Virus record (IMG/VR): IMGVR_UViG_3300030108_004965
Span: 127,697 to 191,696 of that record
Source: a virus
Strand: one strand, 5' to 3'
DNA: 64,000 nucleotides
This document shows positions 20,481-59,055 of the stretch, in pieces. Each line of letters opens with the position of its first letter. Position 1 is the stretch's first letter. Below the pieces are notes generated by a model. The model saw only the letters and a list, made by a program, of their open reading frames with translations, did no database searches and was not told where the DNA came from. The position numbers and the translations under genes were made by a program.

Positions 20481-20518
20481 AAATAGTTGTGAAACAGAAA
20501 TGACAATGAGAACACGAA

Positions 20519-40748: not shown

Positions 40749-40761
40749 TTATTTTGCCTCC

Positions 40762-41172
40762 TTACGATGAAATACCAGAGCCGGCTAGTGCGTACATACT
40801 CCCTGTTGGAATGTTGGTTAGACTTGCATATAACTTCCAAGTAACATCGCCTGCTGCTGTGGCACTTAACCAAACTTCTTTGCACTTAAGATTAACGGTC
40901 AACGATTCATCTTTTGCAAGTTCATAATAATGCTTACTTGTTGGATGGTTTGTTATTGAACTACTTGAAACCAAATGAAGCCTCAACATTTCTGTCCCTG
41001 CGGAAAAATTCCAAAGAGTTATCGATTTTGTAACATAAGGAAACTTAACTTGCAATTCATGATGAGCCGGGACAGCATTGTCTCCGGAATCGGTAAAAGA
41101 ACCTGTGATGTATGGTTGCCCCGATACAATGTAAGAACCAGCGTTCCTAAGGCCTACTGAATATTTGCTCAT
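40762..41172 (-). CDS. Small virion protein, paralog family VGLRNxGSYxVSGQPY
   Basis: MSKYSVGLRNAGSYIVSGQPY...FPYVTK...KHYYEL...LTNIPTGSMY. Confidence 0.75.
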   Translation of the reverse strand: MSKYSVGLRNAGSYIVSGQPYITGSFTDSGDNAVPAHHELQVKFPYVTKSITLWNFSAGTEMLRLHLVSSSSITNHPTSKHYYELAKDESLTVNLKCKEVWLSATAAGDVTWKLYASLTNIPTGSMYALAGSGISS

Positions 41173-41600
41173 GTGCTAATCCCTTCTAATCCATCAAATG
41201 AATACATGCTGCCGGTTGGAATATTTGTTAGCTCTGCGTATACAGATATGAAATCTACAGCATTGGCTGACGCAGGGGCAACAAAAATCTCTTTACATTT
41301 TACATCTAATTCAATAGATGTCCCTTTTTGCAATAAAAGCCAGTTACCAGAACCAGATGCATCATTTGCAAAGCCATAGGTCTTTATAGTTCTATCAAAA
41401 GGTACAAAACTTACAATTGCATCTCTGGTTGAAGATTCATTTGATACGATAACTTTTTTTGTTACATATGGAAATTGAAAGTACCCATCTTGATTAGATC
41501 CCAACGTAGCAGACGTAACAGCCCCACTTAGATAAGGCTGGCCTGATACTTGATATGATCCTACATTTCTAAGACCGGCTGTGTAGATGTTTGACGACAT
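41169..41600 (-). CDS. Small virion protein, paralog family VGLRNxGSYxVSGQPY
   Basis: YTAGLRNVGSYQVSGQPY...FPYVTK...KCKEIFV...AELTNIPTGSMY. Confidence 0.75.
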   Translation of the reverse strand: MSSNIYTAGLRNVGSYQVSGQPYLSGAVTSATLGSNQDGYFQFPYVTKKVIVSNESSTRDAIVSFVPFDRTIKTYGFANDASGSGNWLLLQKGTSIELDVKCKEIFVAPASANAVDFISVYAELTNIPTGSMYSFDGLEGIST

Positions 41601-41633: not shown

Positions 41634-41849
41634 TTAATTTTGTCTCCGGAGACGCTTGCGAAGTTCTTTTTTGTGCTTTGCGATCGCTCTCTTTTTTGCT
41701 AGTCTTTTCTTGACAGAAGGTTTTGTATAATATCTATTATCCTTTACCTCATCAATAATGCCTAATTTTTTACATTTTTTGATGAATCTTTTGATAAATC
41801 TATTTGGGTCTTCGTTCTTTCGAGGTTTTTCTATGTGATTAGTAGCCAT
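41634..41849 (-). CDS. rpsU: Ribosomal protein bS21 homolog
   Basis: 71 aa, basic; E.....IKRF.KKC...GII.EVK..RYY.KPSVKKR..K..A matches the bS21 signature. Confidence 0.9.
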   Translation of the reverse strand: MATNHIEKPRKNEDPNRFIKRFIKKCKKLGIIDEVKDNRYYTKPSVKKRLAKKRAIAKHKKELRKRLRRQN

Positions 41850-42260: not shown

Positions 42261-42878
42261 TTATTCTCCGAGGATTTTCTTAAAAAGATCATTGATACTG
42301 TTTTCTTTGACTTCCCGTAAACGTGTTGAAACATTGTTCATTTGATCTTTTGGATAAACGTATGCGTTGGGGGTTGATGGCTCTGAAACAATATCGAAAC
42401 AGATTAGTTGAAAATCATTTTCAACCGTAACAGTACCGTTTGATGATTCTGTTACGGACCCCAATCCTCGGGAAGAAATTCCAAGTTTCACACCAGCGTT
42501 TATCAAATCTTTGAGTATTCTACCTGAAGGTGTGTCAAGTACTTTTAGTTTTCCCATAACATCTTTACCTTCCCACCAAACATCCGTAACAATGTGCGAA
42601 ACATTTTTGAGGTTGACAACTGAGTCATCAGGGTGATCTAGTTCCCCGCAGGCTCTGGCATCTTTTACGATTTTATCATAGTTATCCATTTCACGTTTCA
42701 AGACGTTATATGGATAAACTCTGCCGTTTCCGTTTTGCTTGTCAGCAGTTTGCAAACGACCAGACATGTAAAGGACTTTGCCATTTGCCATTTCTTTTTT
42801 CTCTCTTTCGGTTAAAAGATCTTGACAAATGCCCCCTTCACAGAGTGCATAGAATTCTCGTAATAAAGTTTTTGACAT
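42261..42878 (-). CDS. Prohead core protease (T4 gp21-like)
   Basis: NGNGRVYP, GELDHP, VSHIVT, TPSGRI, LGISSRGLGS, FDIVSEPSTPNAY. Confidence 0.95.
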   Translation of the reverse strand: MSKTLLREFYALCEGGICQDLLTEREKKEMANGKVLYMSGRLQTADKQNGNGRVYPYNVLKREMDNYDKIVKDARACGELDHPDDSVVNLKNVSHIVTDVWWEGKDVMGKLKVLDTPSGRILKDLINAGVKLGISSRGLGSVTESSNGTVTVENDFQLICFDIVSEPSTPNAYVYPKDQMNNVSTRLREVKENSINDLFKKILGE

Positions 42879-42977: not shown

Positions 42978-43293
42978 AATCACCTCCTGATCTTGATGAT
43001 ACTCTTATACCAAAGTCATCAACGACCATGGAGAGCAAATAAGTAGTTCCGGCTCCCAAACAAGAGAGACAGAAAGCATTCCCTAGGGAATATTCAAATG
43101 TAAATAGTTCTGTGTAGCCGTTTATGCAAAACAAAAATAGAGAACACCAGAAGCCCATACACAAAGGACAGTGAAAAAGAGTGTTCCATTTTTTAGAATA
43201 ATCCTTCTCCGGTCTTATGTCCTCAAAGATCTTACCGTGAACAATTATGAAAGTCATGCCATAGGCTACTAAAATGAAATTAAGTATGTTCAA
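42964..43293 (-). CDS. Small multi-TM membrane protein with CxxC
   Basis: Three hydrophobic segments; LFHCPLCMGFW. Confidence 0.7.
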   Translation of the reverse strand: MNILNFILVAYGMTFIIVHGKIFEDIRPEKDYSKKWNTLFHCPLCMGFWCSLFLFCINGYTELFTFEYSLGNAFCLSCLGAGTTYLLSMVVDDFGIRVSSRSGGDYVDD

Positions 43294-44714: not shown

Positions 44715-45519
44715 TCTTAGATACCTCTGCTATCAGGTCTTGAATATAAAAAATTTCCTCAACCATTTGTTGATTTATTGGAGTTTGTGCGTAGTTGTCC
44801 AGCTTTTGCTTAAGTTTTTTAAAATTTTCCAAATTAGAGTTAGTCCTCCCTTCTGCAATCCGCTGCTGTACGGCATTTTTGAGTCGCCCAATCTCTTCAT
44901 TTAAAAAACTTTTAAGACCAACACCATTATCAGAAAACGACACGATGTAGTTAGTGAGAAGATTTTTCTGTTCAGTTCTCAAAGTTCTATCATATGCGTT
45001 ATTGAATTTGTTAACAAACGTTCTGTATTCAAGATTGTCTAAGTGTTTCATTTCTGTCAGTGTCTGTTCTTTTCTTCCTAGAAATTTTACCAAATTATTC
45101 TCCAGCATAATTCTTTTCTTGGCTGGTAGTTTATCGTTTTGGAAGTACAAACCAACAGAGGCAATGTCTTTATAGTTGGGAATAAAGTTTGAAAAAACAC
45201 CATGCCCTAAGTGTTTGTTCATAACATTTATCAGGCTCGTTTGAGAATTGAAAATAGCTTTTCTGTTGAGACCAAAAAAATCTTTTTTAGTTTCTTCCAA
45301 TAGTCTTTTGGAGAAAGATTCATCTTGTGACTTTACTTCGAGTAAAGAATTGTAAAGATTTAATTCTTTTCCTAACTCACTGTTTTTATTAAAGAATTCT
45401 TTTAAGATTTTCTTTGTAATTTTTTGTCTTTTTTTGTCTTCTCGAACGATTGCTTTTGTTAATTCCTTGATAAGGCATTCGTAAAGAAAAGCGGTATTTC
45501 TTTTCTTATTGTGTTTCAT
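44698..45519 (-). CDS. Hypothetical head-cluster protein (helical)
   Basis: MKHNKKRNTAFLYECLIKEL...; overlaps the portal stop. Confidence 0.7.
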   Translation of the reverse strand: MKHNKKRNTAFLYECLIKELTKAIVREDKKRQKITKKILKEFFNKNSELGKELNLYNSLLEVKSQDESFSKRLLEETKKDFFGLNRKAIFNSQTSLINVMNKHLGHGVFSNFIPNYKDIASVGLYFQNDKLPAKKRIMLENNLVKFLGRKEQTLTEMKHLDNLEYRTFVNKFNNAYDRTLRTEQKNLLTNYIVSFSDNGVGLKSFLNEEIGRLKNAVQQRIAEGRTNSNLENFKKLKQKLDNYAQTPINQQMVEEIFYIQDLIAEVSKNDSKN

Positions 45520-47434
45520 CTTCGTCAACCTTTTTTAATGATTCAATTAATGATTTGATTTCAAAATCAGTACTAAATAGTTTCTCTTCTTCTAAAATAT
45601 CAGATTTACCCTCTTCTACGACACCTCGGGCTAGTGAATCAAGTCCACCAAAGCCAACTTTTCCGGGAAAGGTTTTTCTTAATGTGCCAAGTTCACCTGA
45701 AAGTGCCGTGTTGGTCATTTGTTTTCTCTTGCCGCCTTTCCGGTATGTATGTTGCCTTCTCTTGTATTTGCCTCGGCGCTTCGGTCTTGCGTTGTCATCT
45801 CTTTTTCCGGGCGGTTCTGCCAGAAGAACGTCATCCTCCGCATCATCACCTCCAGTATCATCAGCAGCACCTGCATCATCACCACCTAGGTCTAAATCAC
45901 CACCTTCGTCACCGCCAAGGTCTAAATCTCCTCCGCCAAGATCACCTCCGCCAAGATCACCTCCGCCACCTTCAGCGGCTCCGCCTGATGTAGCGGCCTC
46001 AATGGCAGCAGAGAATTTTGCATCAGAGAACATTTCTCTTTGCATACGAATGTATTCGTCTTCAGAAATACCAAGTAAGTTTTGAGCAACCCATCTCTTA
46101 GAAAAGTACCCCTCAGTTGCACTGCCTGCAATGTCAAACTTGGTCTTCCAATGTTCAAGTTCTTGCATCTCTGCTATTTTGCTAGGATTGTTCAAGGACA
46201 AACTAAAAGCCAAAAGATCATCACTTCGAAAGCCTAATGTGAACAAATGTATGATACCGATTTTTTCTAATTCAGATATCAAAACTCGTTGAAGTCTCTG
46301 AATTGTTCTAGCAAACCTGATGTCTTTTTGAGCCAACGTTGTCTTGTCCTCTGTTGCTCCTTCGCCCATTGAAAGATAGGATTGGGGAACTTTGAGAGCA
46401 GAAAACAGTTTATCTCTGAGATATTTTACATCTTCAATTTGTGCTGTGAATTGGCCTCCGGGAAGATTGACGATGTCGGTAGACGATTGTCCTCCCCTGA
46501 TTGGGATAAAGTAATCCTCTTCGATCGAGAGAGGGTTATACCGCAGATCAACACGACCCGTCTGTGGATCGACAACTTGGTGTCGTTTCATCTGAGTCAT
46601 GATCTTTTGCATATACTGCTCTACATCTTGTGGTGCAATACCGCCTACGTCTATCTTAAACACTCTTCTTTCTGGTGATCTAACAATTCTGTATGCCATC
46701 ATTGCATCTTCTAAAAGCGTTAATTGTCTCCAGATTCTTCTTGCAGGTTCCAGCGCTGAGGTTCCATAGGGAGCATACTTGTCGTTCCCAAGGATTCTAA
46801 AGTGTGCCATCTGCCAGTTCTCCAGAGTAAGCCCTGCGGAGTTCCATTGGTATTGAATGTAATTTGGGTTTGTTGGATCTTCTCCTTCTAATCGCTCTAT
46901 CTCTTGTGATGGAAGACCTATGACGTTTCTAATTCCCATGTTTTCTTCGATGTCCAGATACAAAAACAGATCTCCATACTTACACATTGTTCTCGCCCAA
47001 CCAAAAAGATTAGACGATACATTCAGAATGTCATAATAAAGTGAGTGAAGAATGTATTTGATTTCTTCATTGGGGCACTTAATGTGTAACATAGGAGTCA
47101 AACTAGAGTATGTTGTCATCTCATCCGCATAAATGTCAAGCGAGGATGCTATCTCTGGTGTGTACTCCATCTGATCAAAATCGTGATATCTTTCTGTTCT
47201 GCTCCTATTTGAGATCGCATTGATCGCGGTCATGTTCATAGGGTTGTATTCAGACTTTTTAAATTGAAGTCCGGAGGTTGATTTGAACCTAGAAGAATAT
47301 TTATCCAGATCTCTTCTTCTTAGTTGCCTACCTGTCTGAGTTCTTCTATTAACAATAGGACCAGAGAAAAGTTTTGTTAGCGATTTAAACAAACTGTTCT
47401 GATTATTGTATGGGTTTCTGTCATTACGTGCCAT
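45506..47434 (-). CDS. Portal protein (T4 gp20-like)
   Basis: EDAMMAYRIVRSPERRVFKIDVG, EEDYFIP.RG, LPGG, DVKYLRDKLFSALKVP..YL, DIRFARTIQRLQ. Confidence 0.96.
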   Translation of the reverse strand: MARNDRNPYNNQNSLFKSLTKLFSGPIVNRRTQTGRQLRRRDLDKYSSRFKSTSGLQFKKSEYNPMNMTAINAISNRSRTERYHDFDQMEYTPEIASSLDIYADEMTTYSSLTPMLHIKCPNEEIKYILHSLYYDILNVSSNLFGWARTMCKYGDLFLYLDIEENMGIRNVIGLPSQEIERLEGEDPTNPNYIQYQWNSAGLTLENWQMAHFRILGNDKYAPYGTSALEPARRIWRQLTLLEDAMMAYRIVRSPERRVFKIDVGGIAPQDVEQYMQKIMTQMKRHQVVDPQTGRVDLRYNPLSIEEDYFIPIRGGQSSTDIVNLPGGQFTAQIEDVKYLRDKLFSALKVPQSYLSMGEGATEDKTTLAQKDIRFARTIQRLQRVLISELEKIGIIHLFTLGFRSDDLLAFSLSLNNPSKIAEMQELEHWKTKFDIAGSATEGYFSKRWVAQNLLGISEDEYIRMQREMFSDAKFSAAIEAATSGGAAEGGGGDLGGGDLGGGDLDLGGDEGGDLDLGGDDAGAADDTGGDDAEDDVLLAEPPGKRDDNARPKRRGKYKRRQHTYRKGGKRKQMTNTALSGELGTLRKTFPGKVGFGGLDSLARGVVEEGKSDILEEEKLFSTDFEIKSLIESLKKVDEDETQ

Positions 47435-47437: not shown

Positions 47438-49021
47438 TTATCCTTTATAAATCCAAAAAAATTCTTTTGATTTTTTTATTTCTTCTTTATGTTTCTCTTC
47501 AAATGACTGCTTGAATCCTTCTTGTCCTTTTATTTTAGTATTCATTATGGTTGAAGACTTTTTGATGCCTCCTAGCATAGCCTTTTTGTATTCAACTTCC
47601 CGTTGGTTTTCTTGTAAGGCCGTATCGCGTACCCAGCAAGCAATTGCCAGAGACATAACAAGGTCATCATTATATGAGCGCATTGCTTGAGGTTTGCCAT
47701 TGTACCAAATAAAAGTTTTAAATTCATGAAACAGTCTTGTAGAGTTTAATTTAATTAGTTTGTTTCTCACGTACTCTTCTAATTTGGCCACAATTAAAGG
47801 TCTTGTCTTCGTGCTGGTGGTGAAACCCATTACTGCTCTACTGTTGTTTTCTCCCAAGTTTGATTCTATAAATTCGTGAGTTGATTTAATCGAATAGTAA
47901 ATGTTAGGATATTCTAAAGAATTTAGCTTTTCTAGTACAGAGATGCCTATTCCATTATTCTCTACTACCAAAAGGCATTGGCCGTATTCTCGACCTGATT
48001 CATTTAGGATACTGGCGTATAAATCTAAGTTTGGTTTCCCTTGGTATTCAGCAACCACCTCCATTGTGTCCAGCCTTATAATGTGAAATACAGAATAATC
48101 TGCTCCATCTCCACGAGCCACATCGGCAACCAAAACATAAGAAGCTCCATCGACATATTTCTCCCAAATCCAAAAGTTTCTATCATAACCGGTCCTGTAT
48201 ACAGGATCTCGAACATTTTCAAACAACCACTGCATGTCATCCGGATGAATCACAGTATCACCAGACGTATTGAAATTACATTCCAATTCTTGGGCAATTT
48301 GTCTACGAGACATGTTTTTAGTCTCTTTAGCAAACCAGTCATCGCCACGTTCAGGGTGAACATCCCAAGGTAAAATAATTGGATGGAAATCGTTCTCTTC
48401 TGCTTCAGAATCAACGTATGTCTTGTGGAACCAATTTCCTACCCCATTAGGGGTCGATAAGGCTATGCAGCGCCCTCCAGTAGACAAAGTAGGGTAAAGA
48501 CCCGTCCACAACTCGTCAAGGCCTTCTACGTGTGCTGCCTCGTCTATAACGAGCAGCGATAATGCTTCCGAACGACCTGCGTCTCCAGAGGTGGTTCCGG
48601 CTTTGATCTGAGAGCCGTTTGATAATTCGAATGAGGTTTTGTTGTCCGTGACGATCTTTGCTATCTTGATCCAGTCCGGAAGGTGCTTCATAATTGATTT
48701 TACTTTCTTTACCAAGTTCGCTGCCGTGCCAAATTTGGTTGCGATAACAAGAATGTTCTTGTCTCGGTGAAAAAGCATAAACCAGACAATGTATCCCGCT
48801 GAAATTGTGGAGATACCTAACTGTCTGGCTTTGAGTATAATATTAAAACGATAGTCATTGAAGTCTTTGAGGAGATCCTTCTGATAATCGAAAGTTTTAA
48901 AGGGTATGAGGCCCTTGAGTGGATGTGAAATTAGACAATAATTATCAATGAAGAACTGAGGATTCTTGCCACATTTGACAATCTCCTTGACAATTTCTTG
49001 CTTTGAGAGTTTAAACGCCAT
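47438..49021 (-). CDS. Terminase large subunit (T4 gp17-like)
   Basis: LKARQLGIST (Walker A), LVIDEAAH (Walker B), LSTPNG, ADVARGDG.DYS, VENN, DDLVMSLAI. Confidence 0.96.
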   Translation of the reverse strand: MAFKLSKQEIVKEIVKCGKNPQFFIDNYCLISHPLKGLIPFKTFDYQKDLLKDFNDYRFNIILKARQLGISTISAGYIVWFMLFHRDKNILVIATKFGTAANLVKKVKSIMKHLPDWIKIAKIVTDNKTSFELSNGSQIKAGTTSGDAGRSEALSLLVIDEAAHVEGLDELWTGLYPTLSTGGRCIALSTPNGVGNWFHKTYVDSEAEENDFHPIILPWDVHPERGDDWFAKETKNMSRRQIAQELECNFNTSGDTVIHPDDMQWLFENVRDPVYRTGYDRNFWIWEKYVDGASYVLVADVARGDGADYSVFHIIRLDTMEVVAEYQGKPNLDLYASILNESGREYGQCLLVVENNGIGISVLEKLNSLEYPNIYYSIKSTHEFIESNLGENNSRAVMGFTTSTKTRPLIVAKLEEYVRNKLIKLNSTRLFHEFKTFIWYNGKPQAMRSYNDDLVMSLAIACWVRDTALQENQREVEYKKAMLGGIKKSSTIMNTKIKGQEGFKQSFEEKHKEEIKKSKEFFWIYKG

Positions 49022-49051: not shown

Positions 49052-49525
49052 CTATTCGGAACGAAGGTCTAGATCTGGTTTTTTAGAAGCCTCTGTGTCT
49101 TCGTCATCAACTGCTTTAAATTTCGCCTCGTAAGAGGAATTGATTTGCTGTAACGCTTGAAGTGCTTCTGGGTCTTTCGCTACATTTTCGGCTCTGTCAA
49201 TGAGTGCATCTAGTAATTCACCAAGCCCTATGAATCCGTCTCTATCTTGGCGTATCATCTCGGAAGTTATGGCACCGATAGCTTGTGCTGCATTTTCTAA
49301 TGAATTTCGTCCCATATCAGACTTACCTTTAAGTCTTAGTTTGGGAGCCGCCAATCTAGAAAGTGCCACAAATTGTTTACGAAAAGTTTCGTTTTTTCGA
49401 TAGTATTCTTGGCTCATTGCAACCTCTCGTCCGAGATAATCAGCATCTCCAGCGCTTGCTTCCGCCAAAACAATTTTTAATTCTTCTTTTATAATTTGTT
49501 TTAGTCGTTCTTTTGTAACTCTCAT
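49052..49525 (-). CDS. Tagged putative internal head protein
   Basis: N-terminus MRVTKERLKQIIKEEL. Confidence 0.65.
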   Translation of the reverse strand: MRVTKERLKQIIKEELKIVLAEASAGDADYLGREVAMSQEYYRKNETFRKQFVALSRLAAPKLRLKGKSDMGRNSLENAAQAIGAITSEMIRQDRDGFIGLGELLDALIDRAENVAKDPEALQALQQINSSYEAKFKAVDDEDTEASKKPDLDLRSE

Positions 49526-50079
49526 TTTTGATTTGCTCCTTTTTTACGCGTATCGTTCTGGGGTCGCTTTGTTGAATGTTGAGCCAGAAACTTTCTGGTT
49601 ACATCTCTTTCCGTGGGTTTTGATGGCTCAAGAAGCCCATCGATTTCTTTCATTCCTGAAATTTTATAATGCTGATATGCTTGAACAAAAGTTCTAACTC
49701 GGGAGGTTGTTTGTACTAAAATTTGTGGCTCACCTTTTTTGGTCAAAGTGATCCCCTTTCCAGTTATTGCTTTGTATTCTCTTTGAAGGAATTTTTTTAC
49801 TTCATTTAACATTCGCTCTATTTCTTGTTCATATTTTGGATCAGCAACATCTTTAAGTCTTGTGTCGCTCTGGTAATTAATACAAACAGAATCGGCATAA
49901 AATTTGACACCAAAGCCATCGTTGACTCGACTATCCATAAGAGGACAACCTTGTTCTCTATTTAGACCTACCTTTCTTACTTGTCCGTCCAAGGAGAACC
50001 GCTCATCGTGCGCACCGTCATAAGCGTTTGAGGCTGCTTGTGCTAAGCCTTGAATAATTTCTAAAGTGGTTGAACTCAT
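49522..50079 (-). CDS. Hypothetical protein
   Basis: 185 aa ORF coupled (ATGA) to the downstream gene; no recognised motif. Confidence 0.7.
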   Translation of the reverse strand: MSSTTLEIIQGLAQAASNAYDGAHDERFSLDGQVRKVGLNREQGCPLMDSRVNDGFGVKFYADSVCINYQSDTRLKDVADPKYEQEIERMLNEVKKFLQREYKAITGKGITLTKKGEPQILVQTTSRVRTFVQAYQHYKISGMKEIDGLLEPSKPTERDVTRKFLAQHSTKRPQNDTRKKGANQK

Positions 50080-50094
50080 GTTGTTTTTTTCCTT

Positions 50095-50823
50095 TTAAAT
50101 AGTTGCGACAAACACAGTAATATCGCAAGCAGACCCTGATGCCTGAGCAGAAATAGAATCAAAATTATAAAAATCTGTTGGGGTCCATAGTGCATCAGCA
50201 ACTAGAATTGCTTTTGCTGCTGCGCCACTACCACCACCGCCTGAGAAGCCAATGGTCGGAGCAGAAGTGTACCCAGTTCCCGGGTTTGTTATTGTAACTG
50301 ATGCGACGGTATTACCATCTAATACCGCTGTTCCGGTTGCGCCACTACCACCACCTCCACTAAAAGCTACAGTAGGCGGAGAACTATAGCCACTCCCAAG
50401 ATTTGACATGGAAGCAGAGAAGACTGATGTTGTATCTGAAACAGCCCCGCTCATTGCAGCATTTGTTGTGTTAACATTCATCTTTAGACTATAAAAAATC
50501 TCAGTACTGTCTCTCCCAATTGTTCGGTAGAAAGTTTGTCCGCTTGCTTTATGGTTTAGTTTCATCACAATCTGTTTTTGGTCATCTAGATTGGTAATCC
50601 TAACGTATCTAACATCATCATCTATAAAAGTTCCCGGCGAAACACTGGAAGAAAAGCTCACAATTTCGGTGAAACTCCCAGTCCCTATGTTCATTTGTCT
50701 TTGTGAAATGTGAGTCATCCCACTCTTCTGAAATGAACTGGTAAACTCATGCGCAATACCACCGATGTTAATAGTCTCTGTAGTCTTAACAGTCAAGGTG
50801 GCTGGTGTTATTGTCGTTGCCAT
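50095..50823 (-). CDS. Virion structural protein with duplicated G.GY...PT..FSGGGGSGA repeat
   Basis: Two copies of the repeat; Ser/Thr/Gly-rich. Confidence 0.6.
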   Translation of the reverse strand: MATTITPATLTVKTTETINIGGIAHEFTSSFQKSGMTHISQRQMNIGTGSFTEIVSFSSSVSPGTFIDDDVRYVRITNLDDQKQIVMKLNHKASGQTFYRTIGRDSTEIFYSLKMNVNTTNAAMSGAVSDTTSVFSASMSNLGSGYSSPPTVAFSGGGGSGATGTAVLDGNTVASVTITNPGTGYTSAPTIGFSGGGGSGAAAKAILVADALWTPTDFYNFDSISAQASGSACDITVFVATI

Positions 50824-50826
50824 TTT

Positions 50827-51201
50827 CTACTCCGGTCTCCATCCTGTAGCCCATCGCTCTTCTCTGCCTTCAACCCATTGAATGTAACATTTAAAGCAAC
50901 ATTTAAATTTGGTCATGTATACGTCATCATTCGATTTAAATGAATATGTATTACAAACAGGACAAGAACGCTTGGATTCTTCTTTAAGTAGTTTTGAGGG
51001 TATAAAAACGCCAAAGATCTCTTCTTTGTCAAGATCTTCGGTGTCTGCATCCGGAGAGAATGTGTCTTTTAATTGTTCTAAATATTCTTTTTCTTTATTG
51101 TTATCCCATCTTGATTTTGGATTAACAACAGTTTCTTTTCCGTATTTCTTTGCAATTGCTTGCTCTACTTTGATAGCGTAGTTTGGATCTTTATCCTTCA
51201 T
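50827..51201 (-). CDS. Hypothetical Zn-finger-like protein
   Basis: CPVC...CCFKC. Confidence 0.65.
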   Translation of the reverse strand: MKDKDPNYAIKVEQAIAKKYGKETVVNPKSRWDNNKEKEYLEQLKDTFSPDADTEDLDKEEIFGVFIPSKLLKEESKRSCPVCNTYSFKSNDDVYMTKFKCCFKCYIQWVEGREERWATGWRPE

Positions 51202-51213
51202 GAAACCTCCGCT

Positions 51214-51468
51214 TTATTTAGAAAGAGATAATCTTAAAAATTCAGCAGCCTTGTCAAAACCGGCAAGCTCCAACCTAGAGGCTAAGTCGTCAATTTGAAA
51301 AGGCTCAAGGTCAAGTTCTCGACCAACCAAATCAGGTTGAATGTCCTTGTATGATGTAGTTTTGGTCACCATATCTGACATTTCTTCGGGACTCAAATTT
51401 TCATATTCCTCAAGATTTTCGATCTCTTCTTTAATAATTTTTTTTAATTGTTCTTTAGTTATTTGCAT
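51214..51468 (-). CDS. Tagged putative internal head protein
   Basis: N-terminus MQITKEQLKKIIKEEI. Confidence 0.65.
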   Translation of the reverse strand: MQITKEQLKKIIKEEIENLEEYENLSPEEMSDMVTKTTSYKDIQPDLVGRELDLEPFQIDDLASRLELAGFDKAAEFLRLSLSK

Positions 51469-51472
51469 TTTA

Positions 51473-51796
51473 TTATTCCTCGTAACTTAATGGGTCGTCA
51501 TGCTTACCCCGCATACCTGATCGGTACAAGTCTGCTAATTCTTCTGCTACGACCTGAACCAGTTCCGTTCCGGGCGCCATCTGTGTTAGCAGGAGCGAAT
51601 ACATGTCGTCGGTCTCATCATCATCAGGCGAGATTCCTGACATTGTCTCTGCTGTTTTCAACACTTCTTCGATAAACATTTCCAAGTCCTTTGGCATCTC
51701 AAGCGGAGTGTTTGGGTCAAGCATGTCTGCTTCGGCAGTCAGGCTTTGGATCTCTTCTTGAATCATTTTCTTCAAATTTATTCTAGTTATTTTCAT
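51473..51796 (-). CDS. Tagged putative internal head protein (acidic)
   Basis: N-terminus MKITRINLKKMIQEEI. Confidence 0.65.
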   Translation of the reverse strand: MKITRINLKKMIQEEIQSLTAEADMLDPNTPLEMPKDLEMFIEEVLKTAETMSGISPDDDETDDMYSLLLTQMAPGTELVQVVAEELADLYRSGMRGKHDDPLSYEE

Positions 51797-52190
51797 CTAT
51801 TTTCCTCACGGCGTAATATGTTCCCAGTGATGTTCCCGAGGCTAATAAAAAACCGCCAAAGAATGCCCACATGGTTTTGTTTGGTCTTATTTCTTTTCGG
51901 AGCGCCGCAATCTCTTGATCTCGAAGTTCCAATAGAGTTGTATTTTTTTCCGTTTCGGTTTCCAACTCTGCTTTTAAATAGTCTAATTCCAATTGTAATT
52001 CCGCTTTTGATAAAGATAATGCAAGTTCTTTTTGGATCTCGCATTGCTCAACTGACATCTCTCGACCAGCAATAATGTTGGCCACTGCCTCATCGTTCAT
52101 TAGACGACCGTAAAAGGGTGCTGCTTCGCCTTCTTCAAGGTGAACCATCAAAGGCTCTGCTATCGCTGAAGAAAGCAAAAATAGTAGCAC
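51783..52190 (-). CDS. Signal-peptide, coiled-coil, C-terminal TM protein (spanin-like candidate)
   Basis: MLLFLLSSAIA/EP signal, heptad region, C-terminal MWAFFGGFLLASGTSLGTYYAV. Confidence 0.5.
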   Translation of the reverse strand: MLLFLLSSAIAEPLMVHLEEGEAAPFYGRLMNDEAVANIIAGREMSVEQCEIQKELALSLSKAELQLELDYLKAELETETEKNTTLLELRDQEIAALRKEIRPNKTMWAFFGGFLLASGTSLGTYYAVRKIDENN

Positions 52191-52594
52191 TACTTCTTTC
52201 CTTTTGTATCCATAACAAGGATACCAAACTCTTCGTTGAGAATACGATCAATCTCTTGTGGGTTCTCTTTGTTCGTTTCAATAAGCCTACGCACTCTTTC
52301 TGCTTTTACTAATTCAATGTGGTCGTTAGACTCCATAGCAGTTTTGTGAGCGATCTCTAGGGCTCGTTGATATTTTAAATTTGCCACCGTCATTTTTTCT
52401 ATTTTTTTGTCGGAGGCACCTTCGATAGCGTCGATTTCTTTTTTATAAAGTTCTCGAGCCATCTGCATTTGTGTCTGGAGGGCTTTGACTTTCTTTCCTC
52501 CAAGAAGATAGGCTAAAAGTATAGCGCCCCCAATAACCAGAAATCTCCAGTTATGGAAGCACCATAGTTTTATTTTAGCCCAAGTAATAGTCAT
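52190..52594 (-). CDS. N-terminal TM plus coiled-coil protein (i-spanin-like candidate)
   Basis: FLVIGGAILLAYLLGG TM followed by a charged helix; start at ATG 52594 coupled to the upstream stop. Confidence 0.5.
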   Translation of the reverse strand: MTITWAKIKLWCFHNWRFLVIGGAILLAYLLGGKKVKALQTQMQMARELYKKEIDAIEGASDKKIEKMTVANLKYQRALEIAHKTAMESNDHIELVKAERVRRLIETNKENPQEIDRILNEEFGILVMDTKGKK

Positions 52595-52839
52595 TGCTTG
52601 CCCTGACTCTTTCCCCACTCATAAGCCGCCTGAACGTATTCTGGGTCATACTCGCCCCATTCTGGGTCGTCTTGCATGATTCTCATGTCTTCTATGAAGT
52701 CTTCAATAGAGGAAGCAGTCCGCGCAGCAGTGACAATCTCTCGATCTTCTACTGGGTCAAATCCATAGGCCTGATCTTCCATGACAGCACTAAGTTCTTC
52801 TTTGATAATTTGTTTTAATTGTTCTTTGGTTATTTGCAT
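52591..52839 (-). CDS. Tagged putative internal head protein (acidic)
   Basis: N-terminus MQITKEQLKQIIKEEL. Confidence 0.65.
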   Translation of the reverse strand: MQITKEQLKQIIKEELSAVMEDQAYGFDPVEDREIVTAARTASSIEDFIEDMRIMQDDPEWGEYDPEYVQAAYEWGKSQGKQ

Positions 52840-52841
52840 GT

Positions 52842-52910
52842 CTATTCCTCACAAGTTGGACACGTACAGCAAGGGCAACAATCACCACAGCATTCATGTA
52901 AGTTTTCCAT
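52842..52910 (-). CDS. 22 aa metallothionein-like Cys-rich micropeptide (missed by ORF track)
   Basis: MENLHECCGDCCPCCTCPTCEE*; 8 Cys; AGGAGG SD 8 nt upstream; fills the gap between two tagged genes almost exactly. Confidence 0.72.
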   Translation of the reverse strand: MENLHECCGDCCPCCTCPTCEE

Positions 52911-52914
52911 TTTA

Positions 52915-53151
52915 TTATCCTCCTAAAATGTCTTTAATCTCTTCTATGTCAGACGGATCTATTTTGAGTTCTAAATATAATTCCTCTCCGTTTTCGAATT
53001 TTATATCAATAGCAGCAGTCCCAGCATTTAAATTGATTTGTACTGGTGCAGTAGGTTGTGCCATTGTCGTGCCTACACGCCTTGCCGACCTACTATAATC
53101 TGCCATCCCTTCTATTATTAAATTCTTTAGTTGTTCTTTTGTGATTTCCAT
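52915..53151 (-). CDS. Tagged putative internal head protein
   Basis: N-terminus MEITKEQLKNLIIEG. Confidence 0.6.
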   Translation of the reverse strand: MEITKEQLKNLIIEGMADYSRSARRVGTTMAQPTAPVQINLNAGTAAIDIKFENGEELYLELKIDPSDIEEIKDILGG

Positions 53152-53154
53152 GTC

Positions 53155-53394
53155 TCAGCCTCCGTGTTTCCAAGATTTAGCGAAGTCAATAACAGATTGA
53201 CCCCCAATATAGCAAACCGCTATCATGCCCCAGATGTCAGGATCTAGTCCTGCCCAGAGCATAAGAGCGGTCGCTGTCAGAAAAACAAGTAACTTACGAC
53301 TTGCAACTTTTTCTTGAACGGAATCTAAGATTCCTTTCTCTTTGTTTTTAAGATACAATTCGTTTTGTATCATTACTTTTTTTTCTTGTTCCAT
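53155..53394 (-). CDS. Holin-like two-TM membrane protein
   Basis: SRKLLVFLTATALMLW and IWGMIAVCYIGGQSVIDF; 79 aa, charged termini. Confidence 0.55.
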   Translation of the reverse strand: MEQEKKVMIQNELYLKNKEKGILDSVQEKVASRKLLVFLTATALMLWAGLDPDIWGMIAVCYIGGQSVIDFAKSWKHGG

Positions 53395-56300
53395 TATATT
53401 TTTACCTTTGCATAACCATCTACTTTCTGAATATCGATTGTCATGTCGACAATGTCTTTCAAAGATTCGAGATGGGAAATAAGAAGAACCGTCTTGAATT
53501 GTCCTTTGATCATTTGCAAGAGTCGAATAAACCCTTCCATATGTTCTTCGTCCAATGCCGTTGCTGGTTCGTCAAGTATAAATAGTTCGCTTTTGGGTAA
53601 ATTAGTAACAGAGATTAATGCAAGACGAATAGCCATTGACGCAATGGTCTTCTCCGCACCAGAACCCATGGACAATGGTCTTGGATCATATTTTGGATGC
53701 TTAATGTAAATCTCAAGCCTATCACCAACATTATCAAAAAACACTTCAAAGTTGACAAGAGAATTCAGAATCGAAGAGATCTCTGCATTGATGATGGGCA
53801 ACATGGATTTAATGACCTGATAGGATACACCATTGGCATGCATCGCTTGCCCAAACAAATCATAGGCAATGTAATCTTTCTCAGCATCGTCTATTTGTTG
53901 AATCCTTTCTCTGGCTTCTTCAATTTGGCGACGTGTAGCACCTTCTTCAGACATAAGGCTAAGAACCTTTTTGTTGCACCTTTCCACTTCTGATTCTTTC
54001 TTTGTGATAGTCGAACGGATAGCTTTCGAGTCTCGCTGCAGGGATTCCAAGTTTTCGTATGCCTCTTGGTTTTCGTAGTAGTGGTTAATTTTTGCATTGA
54101 CTTCCTCGATCTCTTTTTCCGCAAGAGCCTTTTTACTCTGGTTTGCCTCAATTTGTGCTTTAATCTTTTGTATTTGTACTTCATTTGTCTTTACCTCTCT
54201 GGTTTTTACATTGTGGTCTTTTAACTCTGCTTCGATGTAAACAATGTTGATGTCATCTTTACTTTTGTTCGTTATCTCTAAATCATATTCAAATCCCTTT
54301 AGGGCTTCTCTAGATTTTTGAATTAGAATTTTTGCCTCTTCGGCTTCTTTAACGAATTGGTTGTTAGAGCAGTACTGACAGTCTGGGTCGTACTCATGGT
54401 CGTGAAGTAGATCAATTTTATTTTGATAATTCGCTATCTCCATCTTGGTTGAACGAATGTGCCTTTCTATAATTGAAATATCTTTCAAAAGACCCTTGTG
54501 TTTTTCAACTTGTTCTTCTCTCGACTCGCGATCAAAATCTTCAATAAAGTCTCGTAAACGCACTTTTAAGGCAAGCAGTTTCTTAAGCCTACTCTCACCA
54601 TTGACTAATGACTCGGAAGCCGTAGAGAGGTCGTTTTGCTTCTTTAAAAGGTTGTTTTTGAGTTCATCTATGTCAAGCCAATCAGTCCCAACAGAATCTA
54701 GTTGATCCTGTATGGTCTTTTGTTCTTCTTGGAGAACTTTTATCCTAGCATTATGTTTGTCACATAAGTCCGTTTGGTCCGCTACTTCCTCTTTGATTTC
54801 GATTAAGGCTTCCCTAGACCACTGTAGTTTCTTCCTCCAGTCAATAGAATTAAGGTGCTTAATAACACCTTTCATTTCGGCAGAATCTTTTTTGGCAAGT
54901 TTATGTTTTGCCTCAAACATTTTGAGATCAAGAAATTTTGCAAGAATCTCCTTGCGCTTGGTAGAGCCTTCATTAATAAAACCAAAAGCATCTGTTTGAG
55001 ATGCCATTGAGGTTATCAAGAAGTCACTAAATGTTCCGAAAGTTTTCTGTATATTCTTATCGGTCTCTGTTCGGGTTGTTCCATTTTTGCTTTCAAAATG
55101 TTCACCAAGAGCATAACGGGTAAAATCAAGTTCCGTCTTTGCTTCTTTTGTTTTCTCCCCTTTTACTGTTTTTTCGTATTTTTCAAGATTTCTAGTAATC
55201 TCGTAGGTATCATCGCCGACTCCGATCTGGAGTTGACACTTAGCCTTTTGCTTATTTTGATTGATGATGTGAACATTCTTTCTTTCTCCTTTTGATGTTG
55301 CATTGAATAAACCGAATAGGGCTGCATCGATAATGCTAGACTTACCCGAATAATTTTTACCGAAGATGCCAACAAGGCCATTTAACTTGTCAAAATCGAT
55401 TTCATTCTTTTCGCCGTAGTTAAATAGATTGTTCCATTTCATTTTACGGAGTTTCCAAACAATATTACGAGAAACCTCTTCAGAGCCCTCTATCTGCTTG
55501 GAATACTTACGATTTAGTTCCAAAACTCTTTCAAGAACTTCTGGTGAGATTTCCTTATCGGACAGAAATGCTCTTATGTATTTTTCTTGAGTGTTTTGGT
55601 CTCGCATGTTTATACGTTCACCATCAGCCTCAACGGTCTCCTGTTGAGAGTAGCCGGCTTTATTTACAAAATTAACAGAATAAGGATGCCACTTAAGATT
55701 TGCATAATCACAGGCTCGTCGTAATTTAACAAGAGGTAAATTATAATTTGAAACAAGTCTTAGTCTGGCGTTCTTTGGTACGTCTATTTTTGGTAATGTT
55801 CCATCTTTATTTATCTCCACGGTATAAAATGGACGCGGAGAAACAAACAGTCTTTTCTCCACAGAAAAATTATCTTTATCACGAATGTTCCAAAGGAGAT
55901 AACCTTTCCTCAAAGACTCGCCAAAGTTTTGCTGGACTGTTGATCCTGCGTACCAAACTCTTTTTTCATCATCAAGATATTGTGTTCTGTGAATGTCGCC
56001 AAGCATAGCAAAGTCAAAATCTTTAAAAATGTCAACTTCATCCTCGCCGTTCTCTAAAGACCATCCGTCTGATACCTTACAACCCATGATAGCACCATGG
56101 TAAAGCGCAATGTTTACCATGGATTTATCAGAGGGAGAGACCCAGTTGTCTCGATCAAACACAGAGAGGACATTTAGGCAGATCGAATCTGTCAACTGGG
56201 TCTCCCCTGAATCTTTTAAAAGATATAGATTAGGATGTTGTAGTGCTTCAATGATAGGCGTAACAGCATCTTGTCGATTTTCATTCTTTAGGTTTCCATC

Positions 56301-56543
56301 ATGATTCCCAAGAATAATGTAAGTCGGAGCGATGTCCGCTAAATTCTTGAGGAACTCTGATGTTAACTCAAAATACTCAGGAGATAAATGAGTTTTAGTG
56401 TGAGCCATGTCTCCTGTGTGGATAATGTAATCCGGCTGATCTTGATGAAGTTGGTCGTAAATTTCCTTAAATACAATCTTGTATTCATCGTGGTATTTTA
56501 AGTTTCGAATGTGTGTATCAGAAATATGTGCAAAAGTAGTCAT
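53394..56543 (-). CDS. Fused Mre11/SbcD nuclease - Rad50/SbcC ATPase (gp47-gp46 fusion)
   Basis: SDTH, HTGD, GNHD, YHG, GDIH phosphoesterase motifs; Walker A GKNYSGKS; Zn hook CQYC; signature SMGSGAEK; Walker B ILDEP; H-loop ISH. Confidence 0.93.
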   Translation of the reverse strand: MTTFAHISDTHIRNLKYHDEYKIVFKEIYDQLHQDQPDYIIHTGDMAHTKTHLSPEYFELTSEFLKNLADIAPTYIILGNHDGNLKNENRQDAVTPIIEALQHPNLYLLKDSGETQLTDSICLNVLSVFDRDNWVSPSDKSMVNIALYHGAIMGCKVSDGWSLENGEDEVDIFKDFDFAMLGDIHRTQYLDDEKRVWYAGSTVQQNFGESLRKGYLLWNIRDKDNFSVEKRLFVSPRPFYTVEINKDGTLPKIDVPKNARLRLVSNYNLPLVKLRRACDYANLKWHPYSVNFVNKAGYSQQETVEADGERINMRDQNTQEKYIRAFLSDKEISPEVLERVLELNRKYSKQIEGSEEVSRNIVWKLRKMKWNNLFNYGEKNEIDFDKLNGLVGIFGKNYSGKSSIIDAALFGLFNATSKGERKNVHIINQNKQKAKCQLQIGVGDDTYEITRNLEKYEKTVKGEKTKEAKTELDFTRYALGEHFESKNGTTRTETDKNIQKTFGTFSDFLITSMASQTDAFGFINEGSTKRKEILAKFLDLKMFEAKHKLAKKDSAEMKGVIKHLNSIDWRKKLQWSREALIEIKEEVADQTDLCDKHNARIKVLQEEQKTIQDQLDSVGTDWLDIDELKNNLLKKQNDLSTASESLVNGESRLKKLLALKVRLRDFIEDFDRESREEQVEKHKGLLKDISIIERHIRSTKMEIANYQNKIDLLHDHEYDPDCQYCSNNQFVKEAEEAKILIQKSREALKGFEYDLEITNKSKDDINIVYIEAELKDHNVKTREVKTNEVQIQKIKAQIEANQSKKALAEKEIEEVNAKINHYYENQEAYENLESLQRDSKAIRSTITKKESEVERCNKKVLSLMSEEGATRRQIEEARERIQQIDDAEKDYIAYDLFGQAMHANGVSYQVIKSMLPIINAEISSILNSLVNFEVFFDNVGDRLEIYIKHPKYDPRPLSMGSGAEKTIASMAIRLALISVTNLPKSELFILDEPATALDEEHMEGFIRLLQMIKGQFKTVLLISHLESLKDIVDMTIDIQKVDGYAKVKI

Positions 56544-56553
56544 GTGTCCTCCA

Positions 56554-56766
56554 TTACTTTCTTACTATAATATAACCCATATCGTATGGGTTGTCAAGTG
56601 AAAAGTTCAACTGATAAAACTTTAAAATGTCTGTTACGATCTTTTTCATCATCAGTGAATTACCAGTTATAATTTTCATTTCGTGTCCCCAATTGTCATT
56701 AATAAAAAGGTGACAAGTGTCATTAACTTCATAGTGCTTTAGGCCATGTAGATCAAGAATTTTCAT
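56554..56766 (-). CDS. Stand-alone Smr-like domain protein
   Basis: ILDLHG...IITGNS resembles the Smr DLHG/IITGKG motifs. Confidence 0.6.
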   Translation of the reverse strand: MKILDLHGLKHYEVNDTCHLFINDNWGHEMKIITGNSLMMKKIVTDILKFYQLNFSLDNPYDMGYIIVRK

Positions 56767-57613
56767 ACTTAACTCCCTGTAGTACCATCGGTGTTCTTGC
56801 TTTGGCTAAATGTAGAATTTTTAAGTAAGATTTTATTATTTGTTCATATTCTTCTTTAGAAGAATATAATTCTACAAAATGATGAAGTCTTAAAAAATTA
56901 TGAAAATCATCCCTGTTTAGTTTACCAAACAGATTGTTAAAAAGCTCTACTGCCTGCTCTGGAGTTTTCGCGACGAATTTATTTGTTTTCTTATCTTTGA
57001 TACCATGTAAGTGAGAAAAGGTATAACCTTTATTGGACAGCATCGCTACCATCAACTGAGTTCGATGTAATCCTTTTAAACTACCTGATTCTCCTGAATG
57101 GTAAGCAAACTTTAACCATGGTAAGTCACCAACCATCCAGTCAATCTGAACATAAGTCTCTCTTTGTCGATAGTAATCATATTGAGGAAACATTGTAAAA
57201 ATGTTACCATTTGTAGTTTTGTCATCTGCTACGTGAATCATGCCCTCGCTTGCGATGGGGTGTGCCAATAACTTTAAGAACGCCTTCAACTTGCACATAT
57301 CATCAGTGCTAGTTCTGGCTCTGGATTTTATTTTTTTATAAAGCGTTTGCCATTCGCTTGCTATGATTCTATATTCTCCTAGTTCTCTAGTGTTGTAAGG
57401 CTCATCATCAAACAAGTGCTTGAAGTCCAGAGCCAAATCCAAATCTCCGGAAATTTCTTTTTTACCCACGCTACCCACGGGATAAAAGTTCTTAAATACA
57501 TGAGCCTTTTTTGGAAAAATGAATCCAAGATGCTCAATGTACTTACTCATTGTTGGTCTAACGTTTTCGCGAACTATTGGCTTCGCGTAGCCTTTAAAAA
57601 TGTTTCCACCCAT
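56753..57613 (-). CDS. DNA polymerase beta-superfamily nucleotidyltransferase
   Basis: VGSVGKKEISGDLDL (hG[GS]x9-13DhD) and a third Asp in VQIDW. Confidence 0.7.
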   Translation of the reverse strand: MGGNIFKGYAKPIVRENVRPTMSKYIEHLGFIFPKKAHVFKNFYPVGSVGKKEISGDLDLALDFKHLFDDEPYNTRELGEYRIIASEWQTLYKKIKSRARTSTDDMCKLKAFLKLLAHPIASEGMIHVADDKTTNGNIFTMFPQYDYYRQRETYVQIDWMVGDLPWLKFAYHSGESGSLKGLHRTQLMVAMLSNKGYTFSHLHGIKDKKTNKFVAKTPEQAVELFNNLFGKLNRDDFHNFLRLHHFVELYSSKEEYEQIIKSYLKILHLAKARTPMVLQGVKYENS

Positions 57614-57622
57614 TGGTGCCTC

Positions 57623-58558
57623 CTATATGTTTCTTAGTTGTTTTTCAAGGAAATAAAGATCTCCATCTATTTCCTCTGCTTGTGTTAATCTTTCTTGAAA
57701 TACGCCCTGAGACATTGACCCAATGTCTTCGTAGTTTCCTATGTTCAGTTTTCTTATTTCCAAATCATACTTCATTAACGAACGAATAATCCAGTGTGCT
57801 TTCTTCTCTGCGTCGGGATCCAAGGCAATGTATACTGGTGTATCATGGATTGCTATCGCTTGGAATAACTTTGAGTCTTCTCTCAAAGTTGAGCCAAGAA
57901 TTGGAATAGCATTTTCACCTGCCACAATAGCATCAAATACGCCTTCAACAAGGATTACTGGTTCATCCCAATCAATATTGAGTTCGTTGAAGATGATGTC
58001 TCGACCACAGGGTGGATTAAGATACCTACGATGATGCCCCACAAATGAACGAGCAATAAAATAATTAGAATTTCCTTCGTCGTTAAAAGACGGGATGATG
58101 ATTCTTCCTGCATATTTCCCCTTTGGGCAATAGCCCATTTTCCATTTTAAAATTTCTTTTCTTGCTATGCCTCGGCCTCTTAGATAGTCTAAGGCGGCTT
58201 TGGATTTGAGTGGCAATCTTTTATTACACAACGACACAAACTCTTCAGGAAGATCAATAACTTGCCTCTCCTCAACGCTGTTGATAGCATCAAATAATTT
58301 GTCAAACTCTGACAAATCAAGTCGACCTTGTAATTCAAGATACTTTTGTCTTTGCTGATAGTTTCCAAACTTTCTTACAAGTCGGTAAATGTTCTTGCCT
58401 CGAGCATCGCAAATCCAACACTTATAAGAGTTGATCGAAAAGTTGACTGACATCTTTTTCTTGTGATGTTTGCAAAACGGGCAGTGATATAAGTGTTCAT
58501 CGCCAGCACGGCGATAGGAACCGAGTATGTCGGTTATTATCTGTCGTTTATTATTCAT
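57623..58558 (-). CDS. DNA primase (Zn finger plus TOPRIM)
   Basis: CPFC...CWIC, RIIIPS, YLNP, VEGVFDA, LDPDA; start at ATG 58558 (track start 58603 lies in the promoter). Confidence 0.92.
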   Translation of the reverse strand: MNNKRQIITDILGSYRRAGDEHLYHCPFCKHHKKKMSVNFSINSYKCWICDARGKNIYRLVRKFGNYQQRQKYLELQGRLDLSEFDKLFDAINSVEERQVIDLPEEFVSLCNKRLPLKSKAALDYLRGRGIARKEILKWKMGYCPKGKYAGRIIIPSFNDEGNSNYFIARSFVGHHRRYLNPPCGRDIIFNELNIDWDEPVILVEGVFDAIVAGENAIPILGSTLREDSKLFQAIAIHDTPVYIALDPDAEKKAHWIIRSLMKYDLEIRKLNIGNYEDIGSMSQGVFQERLTQAEEIDGDLYFLEKQLRNI

Positions 58559-58575
58559 GTTGTCCTCTCTTTTAT

Positions 58576-58603
58576 AATGTAACACGTTGAGAGGATTTGT
58601 CAA
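58576..58603 (-). promoter_or_regulatory. sigma70-type promoter TTGACA-N16-TACATT
   Basis: Minus strand TTGACA aatcctctcaacgtgt TACATT, upstream of primase. Confidence 0.65.
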
Positions 58604-58617
58604 GAAAAAATTTAAAA

Positions 58618-59055
58618 TTAATCTAAATCATTCATCGCATCTTGATAAGCACGTTCATCACCAGTTGGACTAATCAATCTTTTTACAACATAATATTCTG
58701 GGTCGCCTTGTGTGTCGCCGGGATCCAGAATCCAGTAGTCACCAAAGTGATTTGGGGTCAAATCTCGCATCGGTTCAGGGGACCACGAATAGTAATCTAA
58801 AGTAGAATGCTTCCCAAACGTTCCGGGCTTTTTAAATTTAATGTATGGAATAGGACTACTATGTCTCTTTTCCCAGTTATCCCACTTATCAGACATTGGA
58901 ATTCGAGCGAACGCTCTCATTGCTCTAGCGCGGCGCTGTTGTAGTAAACGCTCTTTCTCTTCACGCTCGCCCTCTGCATCAAGTTCAGGTCTAAAATCAC
59001 TTTCGTTAATTGTTTCTAAGATTAATTCTTTTAATTTTGCTTCTGTTAGTTTCAT
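58618..59055 (-). CDS. Tagged putative internal head protein inserted among replication genes
   Basis: N-terminus MKLTEAKLKELILETINE; late motif ACTAATTA at 59074-59081. Confidence 0.6.
   Translation of the reverse strand: MKLTEAKLKELILETINESDFRPELDAEGEREEKERLLQQRRARAMRAFARIPMSDKWDNWEKRHSSPIPYIKFKKPGTFGKHSTLDYYSWSPEPMRDLTPNHFGDYWILDPGDTQGDPEYYVVKRLISPTGDERAYQDAMNDLD

Follow-up and report, generated by a model that had tools for sequence, protein, structure and literature searches.

The internal proteins of bacteriophage T4 have N-terminal propeptides (10-19 residues) that target them to the prohead core and are removed by the protease gp21 after L/I-x-E, and they are co-purified with gp22. 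Among the T-even phages, the genes for these proteins are diverse with only this capsid-targeting sequence (CTS) conserved, and foreign proteins fused to the T4 CTS are packaged and delivered (PMC9026906, PMC3012670). The present analysis concerns a comparable arrangement in a 64-kb stretch of viral DNA (the window), which is the last third of the 191,696-bp IMG/VR record IMGVR_UViG_3300030108_004965 (CheckV, 100% complete), a genome with nearly all of its genes on the minus strand. Judged from its genes, this virus is evidently a distant T4-like myovirus, uncultured and marine. Six open reading frames (ORFs) of the window begin with a common N-terminal peptide (the tag), which we consider to be, more likely than not, a T4-CTS-like prohead-targeting leader that is removed by the head protease and is carried by hypervariable cargo cassettes.

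Head-internal cargo is also known from other systems. In the giant phages phiKZ and SPN3US, a prohead protease cutting after Glu processes many of the proteins inside the head, and part of this cargo is ejected into the cell; to our knowledge, no single N-terminal tag shared by swappable cassettes has been described there, and both the protease motif and the head architecture differ. Encapsulin cargo-loading peptides are short conserved peptides that load diverse cargo into an HK97-fold shell, but they are usually C-terminal, bind the shell protein directly, stay uncleaved and are non-viral, and thus offer an analogy only. No paper on the tag described here or on a CTS in marine T4-like phages, and no proteome of this uncultured clade, was found in the literature searched, and none of 8.4 million papers contains the motif of the tag.

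The six ORFs that the first-pass annotation had grouped by their N-terminal peptide were all present on the minus strand, with starts at 49525, 51468, 51796, 52839, 53151, and 59055, by which they are named below (Table 1). In all six, the tag starts at the initiator Met, with the preceding in-frame stop one to eight codons before it. When the first 16 residues after all 4,692 start codons of the genome were given a BLOSUM score, the mean was -7 with a standard deviation of 8, while the six scored 42-56; in a search of a tag profile against 1,115 ORFs, the six were recovered with E-values of 1e-12 to 8e-7. Since the six lie far above the start-codon background and have profile E-values of this order, chance is excluded. 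Two further clear members were found outside the window, at genome positions 61903 and 68927, for a total of eight with E-values of 1e-12 to 5e-4. The likeness between 51468 and 52839 that had been noted at the DNA level is real, with 42 of 48 nt identical at the 5' end, and close metagenomic homologues of the 52839 protein (P0014 and P0026) are likewise tagged.

Relatives were collected by a TerL search of IMG/VR, which gave 80 loci at 72-90% identity; these contain 149 tagged ORFs, all on the TerL strand. An enlarged set that combined the 80 TerL-anchored loci with tag-anchored and scaffold-anchored ones (213 loci, 2.0 Mb) holds at least 416 further tagged ORFs, corresponding to at least 375 distinct proteins. 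The resulting consensus, M-K-[LI]-T-K-E-x-L-K-x-I-I-K-E-E-L-x-x-V-[ML]-x-E, describes an amphipathic helix of 22 residues, and the length of 14-16 amino acids (aa) first assigned to the tag has to be corrected accordingly: residues 17-22 played no role in the selection of members and are conserved nonetheless, and the information falls to background right after residue 22. The tag had also been described as ending in I-x-E. An I-K-E does occupy residues 12-14 (I-K-E14 in 134 of 141 tags), but the tag runs on to a second, better-placed [LIVM]-x-E, which typically ends at residue 21/22, where the conservation stops. This second motif, with its Glu at positions 20-24, occurs in 99 of 141 tags, compared with 7% of equal windows taken from the bodies. 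The propeptide is thus predicted to end in a head-protease cleavage motif (L/I-x-E, cut after Glu).

As the first-pass annotation had stated, the window encodes a gp21-like protease, a scaffold, and a major capsid protein (MCP) that carry such sites. The protease, which is of the peptidase S77 type, aligns to T4 gp21 (PDB 5JBL) with an E-value of 2e-21 and has kept the catalytic His (E-L-D-H-P) and Ser (I-S-S-R-G). The scaffold is acidic (Asp plus Glu, 26%), contains 24 [LIVM]-x-E sites, and is conserved over its N-terminal 43 residues and its C-terminal stretch of about 110, which ends in K-L-A-G-I-K. In the N-terminal propeptide of the MCP, sites were found at L-T-E9, L-L-E34, L-L-E50, and L-R-E59; the last of these, at 57-59, reads L-[RK]-E and is invariant across about 47 distinct relatives, with a variable stretch after it. 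Counterparts of gp20, gp21 (S77), gp22, and gp23 are therefore all present, which is the head plan of T4. Among isolates, Flavobacterium phage immuto and Microcystis phage Mel-JY01 come closest, with portal identities of 41-44% (41% for immuto), and the portal and TerL genes belong to the backbone that receives cassette inserts.

Two further loci deserve mention in their own right. A gene for ribosomal protein S21 lies within the head module (41634-41849, minus strand; phrog_21469, 4e-11), and Mel-JY01 has S21 at the same place, after the protease and a small protein as in the present phage. At 38868-41600 (minus strand), three paralogues in tandem (626, 136, and 143 aa) have their N- and C-terminal segments in common, and the long one contains a large insert; neither Pfam nor PHROGs gave them a function.

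The comparison of relatives further strengthens the view of the tagged genes as cassettes. Five pairs of backbone genes upstream of TerL enclose slots that are either empty, with gaps of a few bases, or filled; tagged ORFs occur in 79 of the 108 filled slots and cover a median of 93% of the inserted DNA. Within the head block, 27 inserts were identified, 10 of them between the portal gene and the next gene, 10 just before the protease gene, and seven between the protease gene and the core gene. The expectation that payloads would vary at fixed loci was therefore borne out in related phages, where different bodies, or presence and absence, are seen between conserved genes. As with the internal proteins of T4, the carriers are polymorphic among relatives and the tag is kept. 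The clustered cassettes alternate with small conserved membrane proteins. Gene 49525 was also considered as a small terminase and was rejected for this role, as 43 of 75 relatives have nothing in the slot upstream of TerL and the bodies that occupy it in the rest are unrelated. A separate observation concerns the 75-nt gap between two of the tagged genes, which is occupied by a 22-codon mini-ORF (52842-52910, minus strand) with eight Cys (M-E-N-L-H-E-C-C-G-D-C-C-P-C-C-T-C-P-T-C-E-E) and a GGAGG ribosome site.

Directly after the protease gene lies the gene for a 136-aa prohead-core-like protein, at which the first-pass annotation had seen a looser copy of the tag. A weak likeness is indeed there, the N-terminal helix being faintly tag-like and ending in V-I-F-E, but the hidden Markov model (HMM) search gave an E-value of only 0.17 and hhalign one of 9.5e-4 with a probability of 22%. 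The gene was also rejected as a cassette and is a conserved core gene instead, present in 26 of 80 loci with a median identity of 60%. The C-terminus of its product, W-K-K-L-A-G-K, copies the invariant K-L-A-G-I-K end of the scaffold, an end that immuto and Mel-JY01 have retained as well. The leaders may accordingly derive from, or mimic, the termini of genuine core proteins.

A related picture emerges from immuto, where M-K-K-S-Q-L-R-x-I-I-K-E, a shorter relative of the tag, stands at the start of several unrelated genes and a second leader at the start of others; some of the genes with the shorter tag are located just upstream of the terminase gene and one is located between the portal and protease genes. 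Another immuto leader copies the K-L-A-G-I-I C-terminus of the scaffold. Unlike the phage studied here, immuto has at least three leader types, and its match to the tag profile is weak (E-values of 5e-4 and 0.01 within the immuto genome). No immuto virion data were found in the literature searched.

The bodies that follow the tag are mutually unrelated, as was claimed from the window alone, with 144 bodies falling into 119 BLASTP clusters and 363 into 273, of which 235 are singletons (BLAST, residue 24 to end). The tagged proteins range from 35 to 485 aa; the bodies have a median length of 125 aa and a median isoelectric point of 5.0, and 65% of them are acidic. Pfam matches were obtained for 3 of 138 tagged proteins (an RNase_T exonuclease, L5 gp82, and a domain of unknown function), the RNase_T exonuclease match (L071:3074-4147) being above threshold, and PHROGs add almost no annotation. 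The six window bodies have no homologues in the 80 related loci, in which their untagged neighbours recur in 24-75 loci. Larger databases returned few matches: a search of 5.8 billion proteins gave four homologues for the 49525 body, three tagged and one short and tagless, with the second-site motif of the three tagged ones reading L-x-E in two and having D for E in one; for the 59055 body, 1.84 billion representatives yielded four relatives; and a tblastn search with one tagged protein against 50,697 phage records gave no match. In an AlphaFold2 model of the 49525 protein, the tag forms a separate helix (residues 5-23), which is joined through a low-confidence hinge (19-27) to a confident helical bundle; a fold search with this model against the PDB returned generic helical bundles only (E > 0.2).

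The position of the tagged genes relative to promoter-like motifs was then compared with that of the structural genes. The motif ACTATTTA is strand-specific, with 20 sense copies and one antisense copy in the genome and ratios of 162:5 and 107:0 in relatives, and in 35 of 36 relatives it precedes the scaffold gene by 35-44 nt, in most cases by 38-41. We infer that it is a candidate late promoter core, differing from the TATAAATA of T4. The latter was found only four times on the sense strand and nowhere near tagged genes, and this phage uses no late promoter of that T4 type. Three copies of ACTATTTA precede the five clustered tagged genes at distances of 185-746 nt, and the member at genome position 61903 has a copy 34 nt upstream, such that five of the six window members together with genome 61903 stand downstream of ACTATTTA/CTATTTA, the motif common to the scaffold operon. 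Among relatives, tagged ORFs are found downstream of ACTATTTA 3-4.5 times more often than random positions. Promoters resembling those of sigma70 (TTGACA, about 17 nt, GTTATATTA) number 20 on the sense and four on the antisense strand and lie ahead of replication and recombination genes; one of them is near 60400 (minus strand), in addition to that listed in Table 1, and their -35/-10 type argues against a Bacteroidota host. The lone member 59055 had been reported to sit among early replication genes with a late motif of its own. Its early-type surroundings hold, with a sigma70-like promoter 1,345 nt upstream in the primase operon, but no ACTATTTA/CTATTTA was found within 1.5 kb upstream of it. 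Apart from the eight clear members, a 1,483-aa protein (genome 73315-77766, minus strand; L221:116-4567) has a weakly tag-like N-terminus and ACTATTTA 51 nt upstream; Pfam assigned it to no family, and it is a candidate large head or ejection protein.

Table 1. Coordinates of the tagged genes, head genes, and promoter-like motifs (window positions, except for the immuto leaders, which are given in immuto coordinates)
Feature	Position	Strand	Remarks
Tagged cassette gene, 157 aa	49052..49525	minus	E-value 7e-11; between conserved g50079 and TerL; L-A-E at residues 20-22
Tagged cassette gene, 84 aa	51214..51468	minus	E-value 1e-8
Tagged cassette gene, 107 aa	51473..51796	minus	E-value 3e-7
Tagged cassette gene, 82 aa	52591..52839	minus	E-value 1e-12
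Tagged cassette gene, 78 aa	52915..53151	minus	E-value 7e-7; tag more diverged (I-I-E-G)
Tagged gene, 145 aa	58618..59055	minus	E-value 8e-7; between g59702 and the primase gene, early-type operon
Major capsid protein, gp23 family	29299..31125	minus	PF07068, 5e-62
gp22-like scaffold, 402 aa	31146..32354	minus	directly upstream of the MCP gene
Prohead-core-like protein, 136 aa	41850..42260	minus	directly after the protease gene
Prohead protease, T4 gp21/peptidase S77 type	42261..42878	minus	phrog_207, 5e-57
gp20-like portal	45506..47434	minus	phrog_213, 2e-73
Large terminase (TerL)	47438..49021	minus	phrog_2, 1e-52
ACTATTTA	50096..50103	minus	24 nt before g50079, at the start of the run g50079, tagged 49525, TerL, portal
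ACTATTTA	51975..51982	minus	186 nt upstream of tagged 51796
ACTATTTA	53579..53586	minus	within the SbcCD gene, at its 3' end; precedes g53394 and tagged 53151 and 52839
ACTATTTA, other copies include	32388-32395, 35493-35500, 25555-25562, 20480-20487, 45574-45581, 43101-43108	minus
Sigma70-like early promoter	56566..56597	minus	before the fused SbcD-SbcC gene; nearest early-type promoter upstream of the tagged cluster
Leader families of immuto (L083)	1668, 2254, 12562, 22729; 3180, 17005, 18006, 24615; 11049

The tag is nearly absent outside phage DNA, as would be expected of the phage-specific signal proposed at first. A scan for the tag core in one genome per species across 185,579 prokaryote species confirmed three loci, all on contigs of marine metagenome-assembled genomes (MAGs). 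One of them (L086; PBOB01000007.1, from an 'Acidiferrobacteraceae' MAG) is a phage contig of the clade with portal, TerL, protease, and MCP homologues. The second (L087; PBIO01000025.1, from a 'Halobacteriovorax' MAG) carries at 8800-15060 at least 13 consecutive tagged genes, in which a variant tag is followed by L-[VIL]-x-E, so that the second cutting motif is kept in a distant lineage; in this MAG, an S77 protease and a gp23-type capsid gene occur on one contig (C13), which the coordinates suggest is the array's own. At the third, Opitutia-binned locus, two homologues of proteins of this phage were found, and neither an S77 protease nor gp23 was detected in that MAG. Among the 75 tag-anchored loci listed (72 viral, 3 from MAGs), 73 have homologues of this phage's proteins, mostly terminase and portal.

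Taken at the level of sequence, every element of the T4 design appears to be in place, with no homology to the T4 tag or internal proteins. Like the CTS of IPI, IPII, IPIII, and Alt, the tag is a short N-terminal propeptide common to otherwise unrelated proteins, with an L/I-x-E end and a matching S77 protease encoded by the same phage, and its carriers are polymorphic next to conserved head genes laid out on the gp20/gp21/gp22/gp23 plan. As a mechanism, we propose that the 22-residue amphipathic helix would confer on any carrier an affinity for the assembling scaffold core and that the carrier protein would be enclosed as the gp23-like shell forms. The gp21-type protease would cut after Glu at I-K-E(14) and/or [LIVM]-x-E(21/22), taking the tag off and leaving the body free inside the head, from which it could exit with the DNA at infection. 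In T4, an Asp at the cleavage site prevents processing and leaves targeting intact. Because the tag alone is proposed to suffice, the bodies would be free to be exchanged. Of the earlier idea of a swappable packaging signal in a modular locus, the unrelated payloads at fixed slots and the virus-specific tag have held up, but the tag is longer than was thought and has a second cut motif; the associated role of the cargo as injected effectors is plausible.

There are also differences from T4. The CTS of IPIII has 10 residues, whereas the tag here has 22 and offers two candidate cut sites. The repertoire is larger, with 5-13 or more tagged genes per genome and at least 273 body clusters in 2 Mb of relatives, and the conserved core protein beside the protease has a weakly related N-terminus here.

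Several observations weigh against a prohead-targeting leader. No homology between the tag and the T4 CTS is detectable, none of 138 tagged proteins matches an internal-head-protein family in Pfam or PHROG, and the mostly acidic bodies are unlike the basic, DNA-binding IPII and IPIII of T4. The 'late' label of ACTATTTA is based on its position before structural genes, and two members, 59055 and genome 68927, lie in early-type operons with no late-type motif within 1.5 kb. Furthermore, 24 of 119 tag-bearing database proteins, a proportion inflated by a sample that favours multi-tag proteins, carry two to four tags, some of them without Met, and represent cassettes fused in frame; as the tag is internal in such fused proteins, another point in which it departs from the T4 CTS, it is not strictly an N-terminal signal. 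Finally, the T4 system is known experimentally, whereas the clade described here is uncultured and is known from sequence alone.

If a prohead-targeting leader is nevertheless what the tag represents, capsid addressing by a clip-off leader as in T4 would not be peculiar to the T-even coliphages: distant marine T4-like phages would use it generally, as a modular device with a different and longer tag. The tag would then mark hundreds of unannotatable orphan genes as probable virion cargo, provide a candidate set of injected effectors (anti-defence or takeover proteins) for abundant uncultured ocean phages, and be available as a natural means of bringing foreign proteins into such capsids. The sharp boundary of the tag and the related N-terminus of the core protein would also make an open question of T4, the binding partner of the targeting peptide, approachable.

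A more elaborate version of this scheme, in which loading has two parts, is tentative and on the whole doubtful. Here, the 136-aa protein would be an adaptor or prototype, and the marine clade as well as a distant T4-like lineage would load a very large pool of orphan proteins with rapid turnover, to be injected as first-strike effectors. The K-L-A-G C-terminus of the 136-aa protein would bind the shell or scaffold, its tag-like N-terminal helix would bundle or compete with the tags of the cassettes, and the cargo pool would include nucleases as well as multi-tag polyproteins, which the head protease would separate into their parts.

The hydrophobic residues of the tag follow a heptad-like pattern (positions 8, 11/12, 15/16, and 19/20), which could instead belong to a helix that docks or oligomerises with a common partner unconnected with the capsid (for instance a host factor, a regulator of the phage, or a complex in the membrane), with the proteins acting in the infected cell and the L/I-x-E being incidental. 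Tags that are internal in fused proteins, the two members in early-type operons, the interleaving of the clustered cassettes with small conserved membrane proteins, and the mostly acidic bodies would all suit such a role. We nonetheless regard it as unlikely, given that the conservation stops exactly at the Glu of [LIVM]-x-E, which is ten-fold enriched there, that the cassettes sit inside the portal-protease-core block and are over-represented downstream of the motif found at the head of the scaffold/MCP operon, and that the tag was found on phage DNA only, accompanied by an S77 protease and a gp23-type MCP in each case where the visible part of the genome is large enough.

The occurrence of tandem duplicates such as 51468/52839, together with the small, charged, and domain-free nature of most bodies, might instead point to one fast-evolving family, in which only the N-terminal helix is constrained and no bodies are swapped. 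The wide spread of protein lengths argues against this, as do the unrelated domains in a few bodies (RNase_T over the Pfam threshold; L5 gp82), the stepwise drop of conservation at residue 23 with no gradual decay, the presence or absence of cassettes at many different slots, and the several tags per fused protein, which together render a single family improbable. One enzyme serving many substrates through a common leader is a known design, and the tag might accordingly be a recognition leader for an enzyme other than the head protease, in the style of ribosomally synthesized and post-translationally modified peptides or radical S-adenosylmethionine (SAM) enzymes; this is very improbable, as the radical-SAM domain PF04055 is absent from the complete 192-kb genome, with control genomes all positive, and no conserved enzyme gene accompanies the cassettes, whose conserved neighbours are without a Pfam family. 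That the stretch is conserved as a nucleic-acid element (an RNA site for translation initiation or regulation, or a recombination site) with the peptide as a by-product is hardly credible, even with two nearly identical DNA copies in the window and a common 5' end that could aid cassette recombination, since only the Shine-Dalgarno sequence is conserved upstream and the Leu and Ile codons of 141 tag copies use all synonymous choices at first and third positions with second positions invariant, which places the constraint on the peptide and not on the DNA.

Two further observations concern other parts of the genome. A single 1,049-aa ORF at 53394-56543 (minus strand) joins an SbcD/Mre11-like nuclease to an SbcC/Rad50-like ATPase; judged from motifs in the translation, this fusion is the equivalent of T4 gp47 and gp46. 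Outside the window, two clusters of three to four intergenic direct repeats, A-A-A-A-A-C-T-T-T-A-C-A-T-A-A-C-T-A-T-G, lie at genome positions 80,050-80,120 and 100,280-100,510, and these could be iterons, an origin, or a repeated regulatory site.

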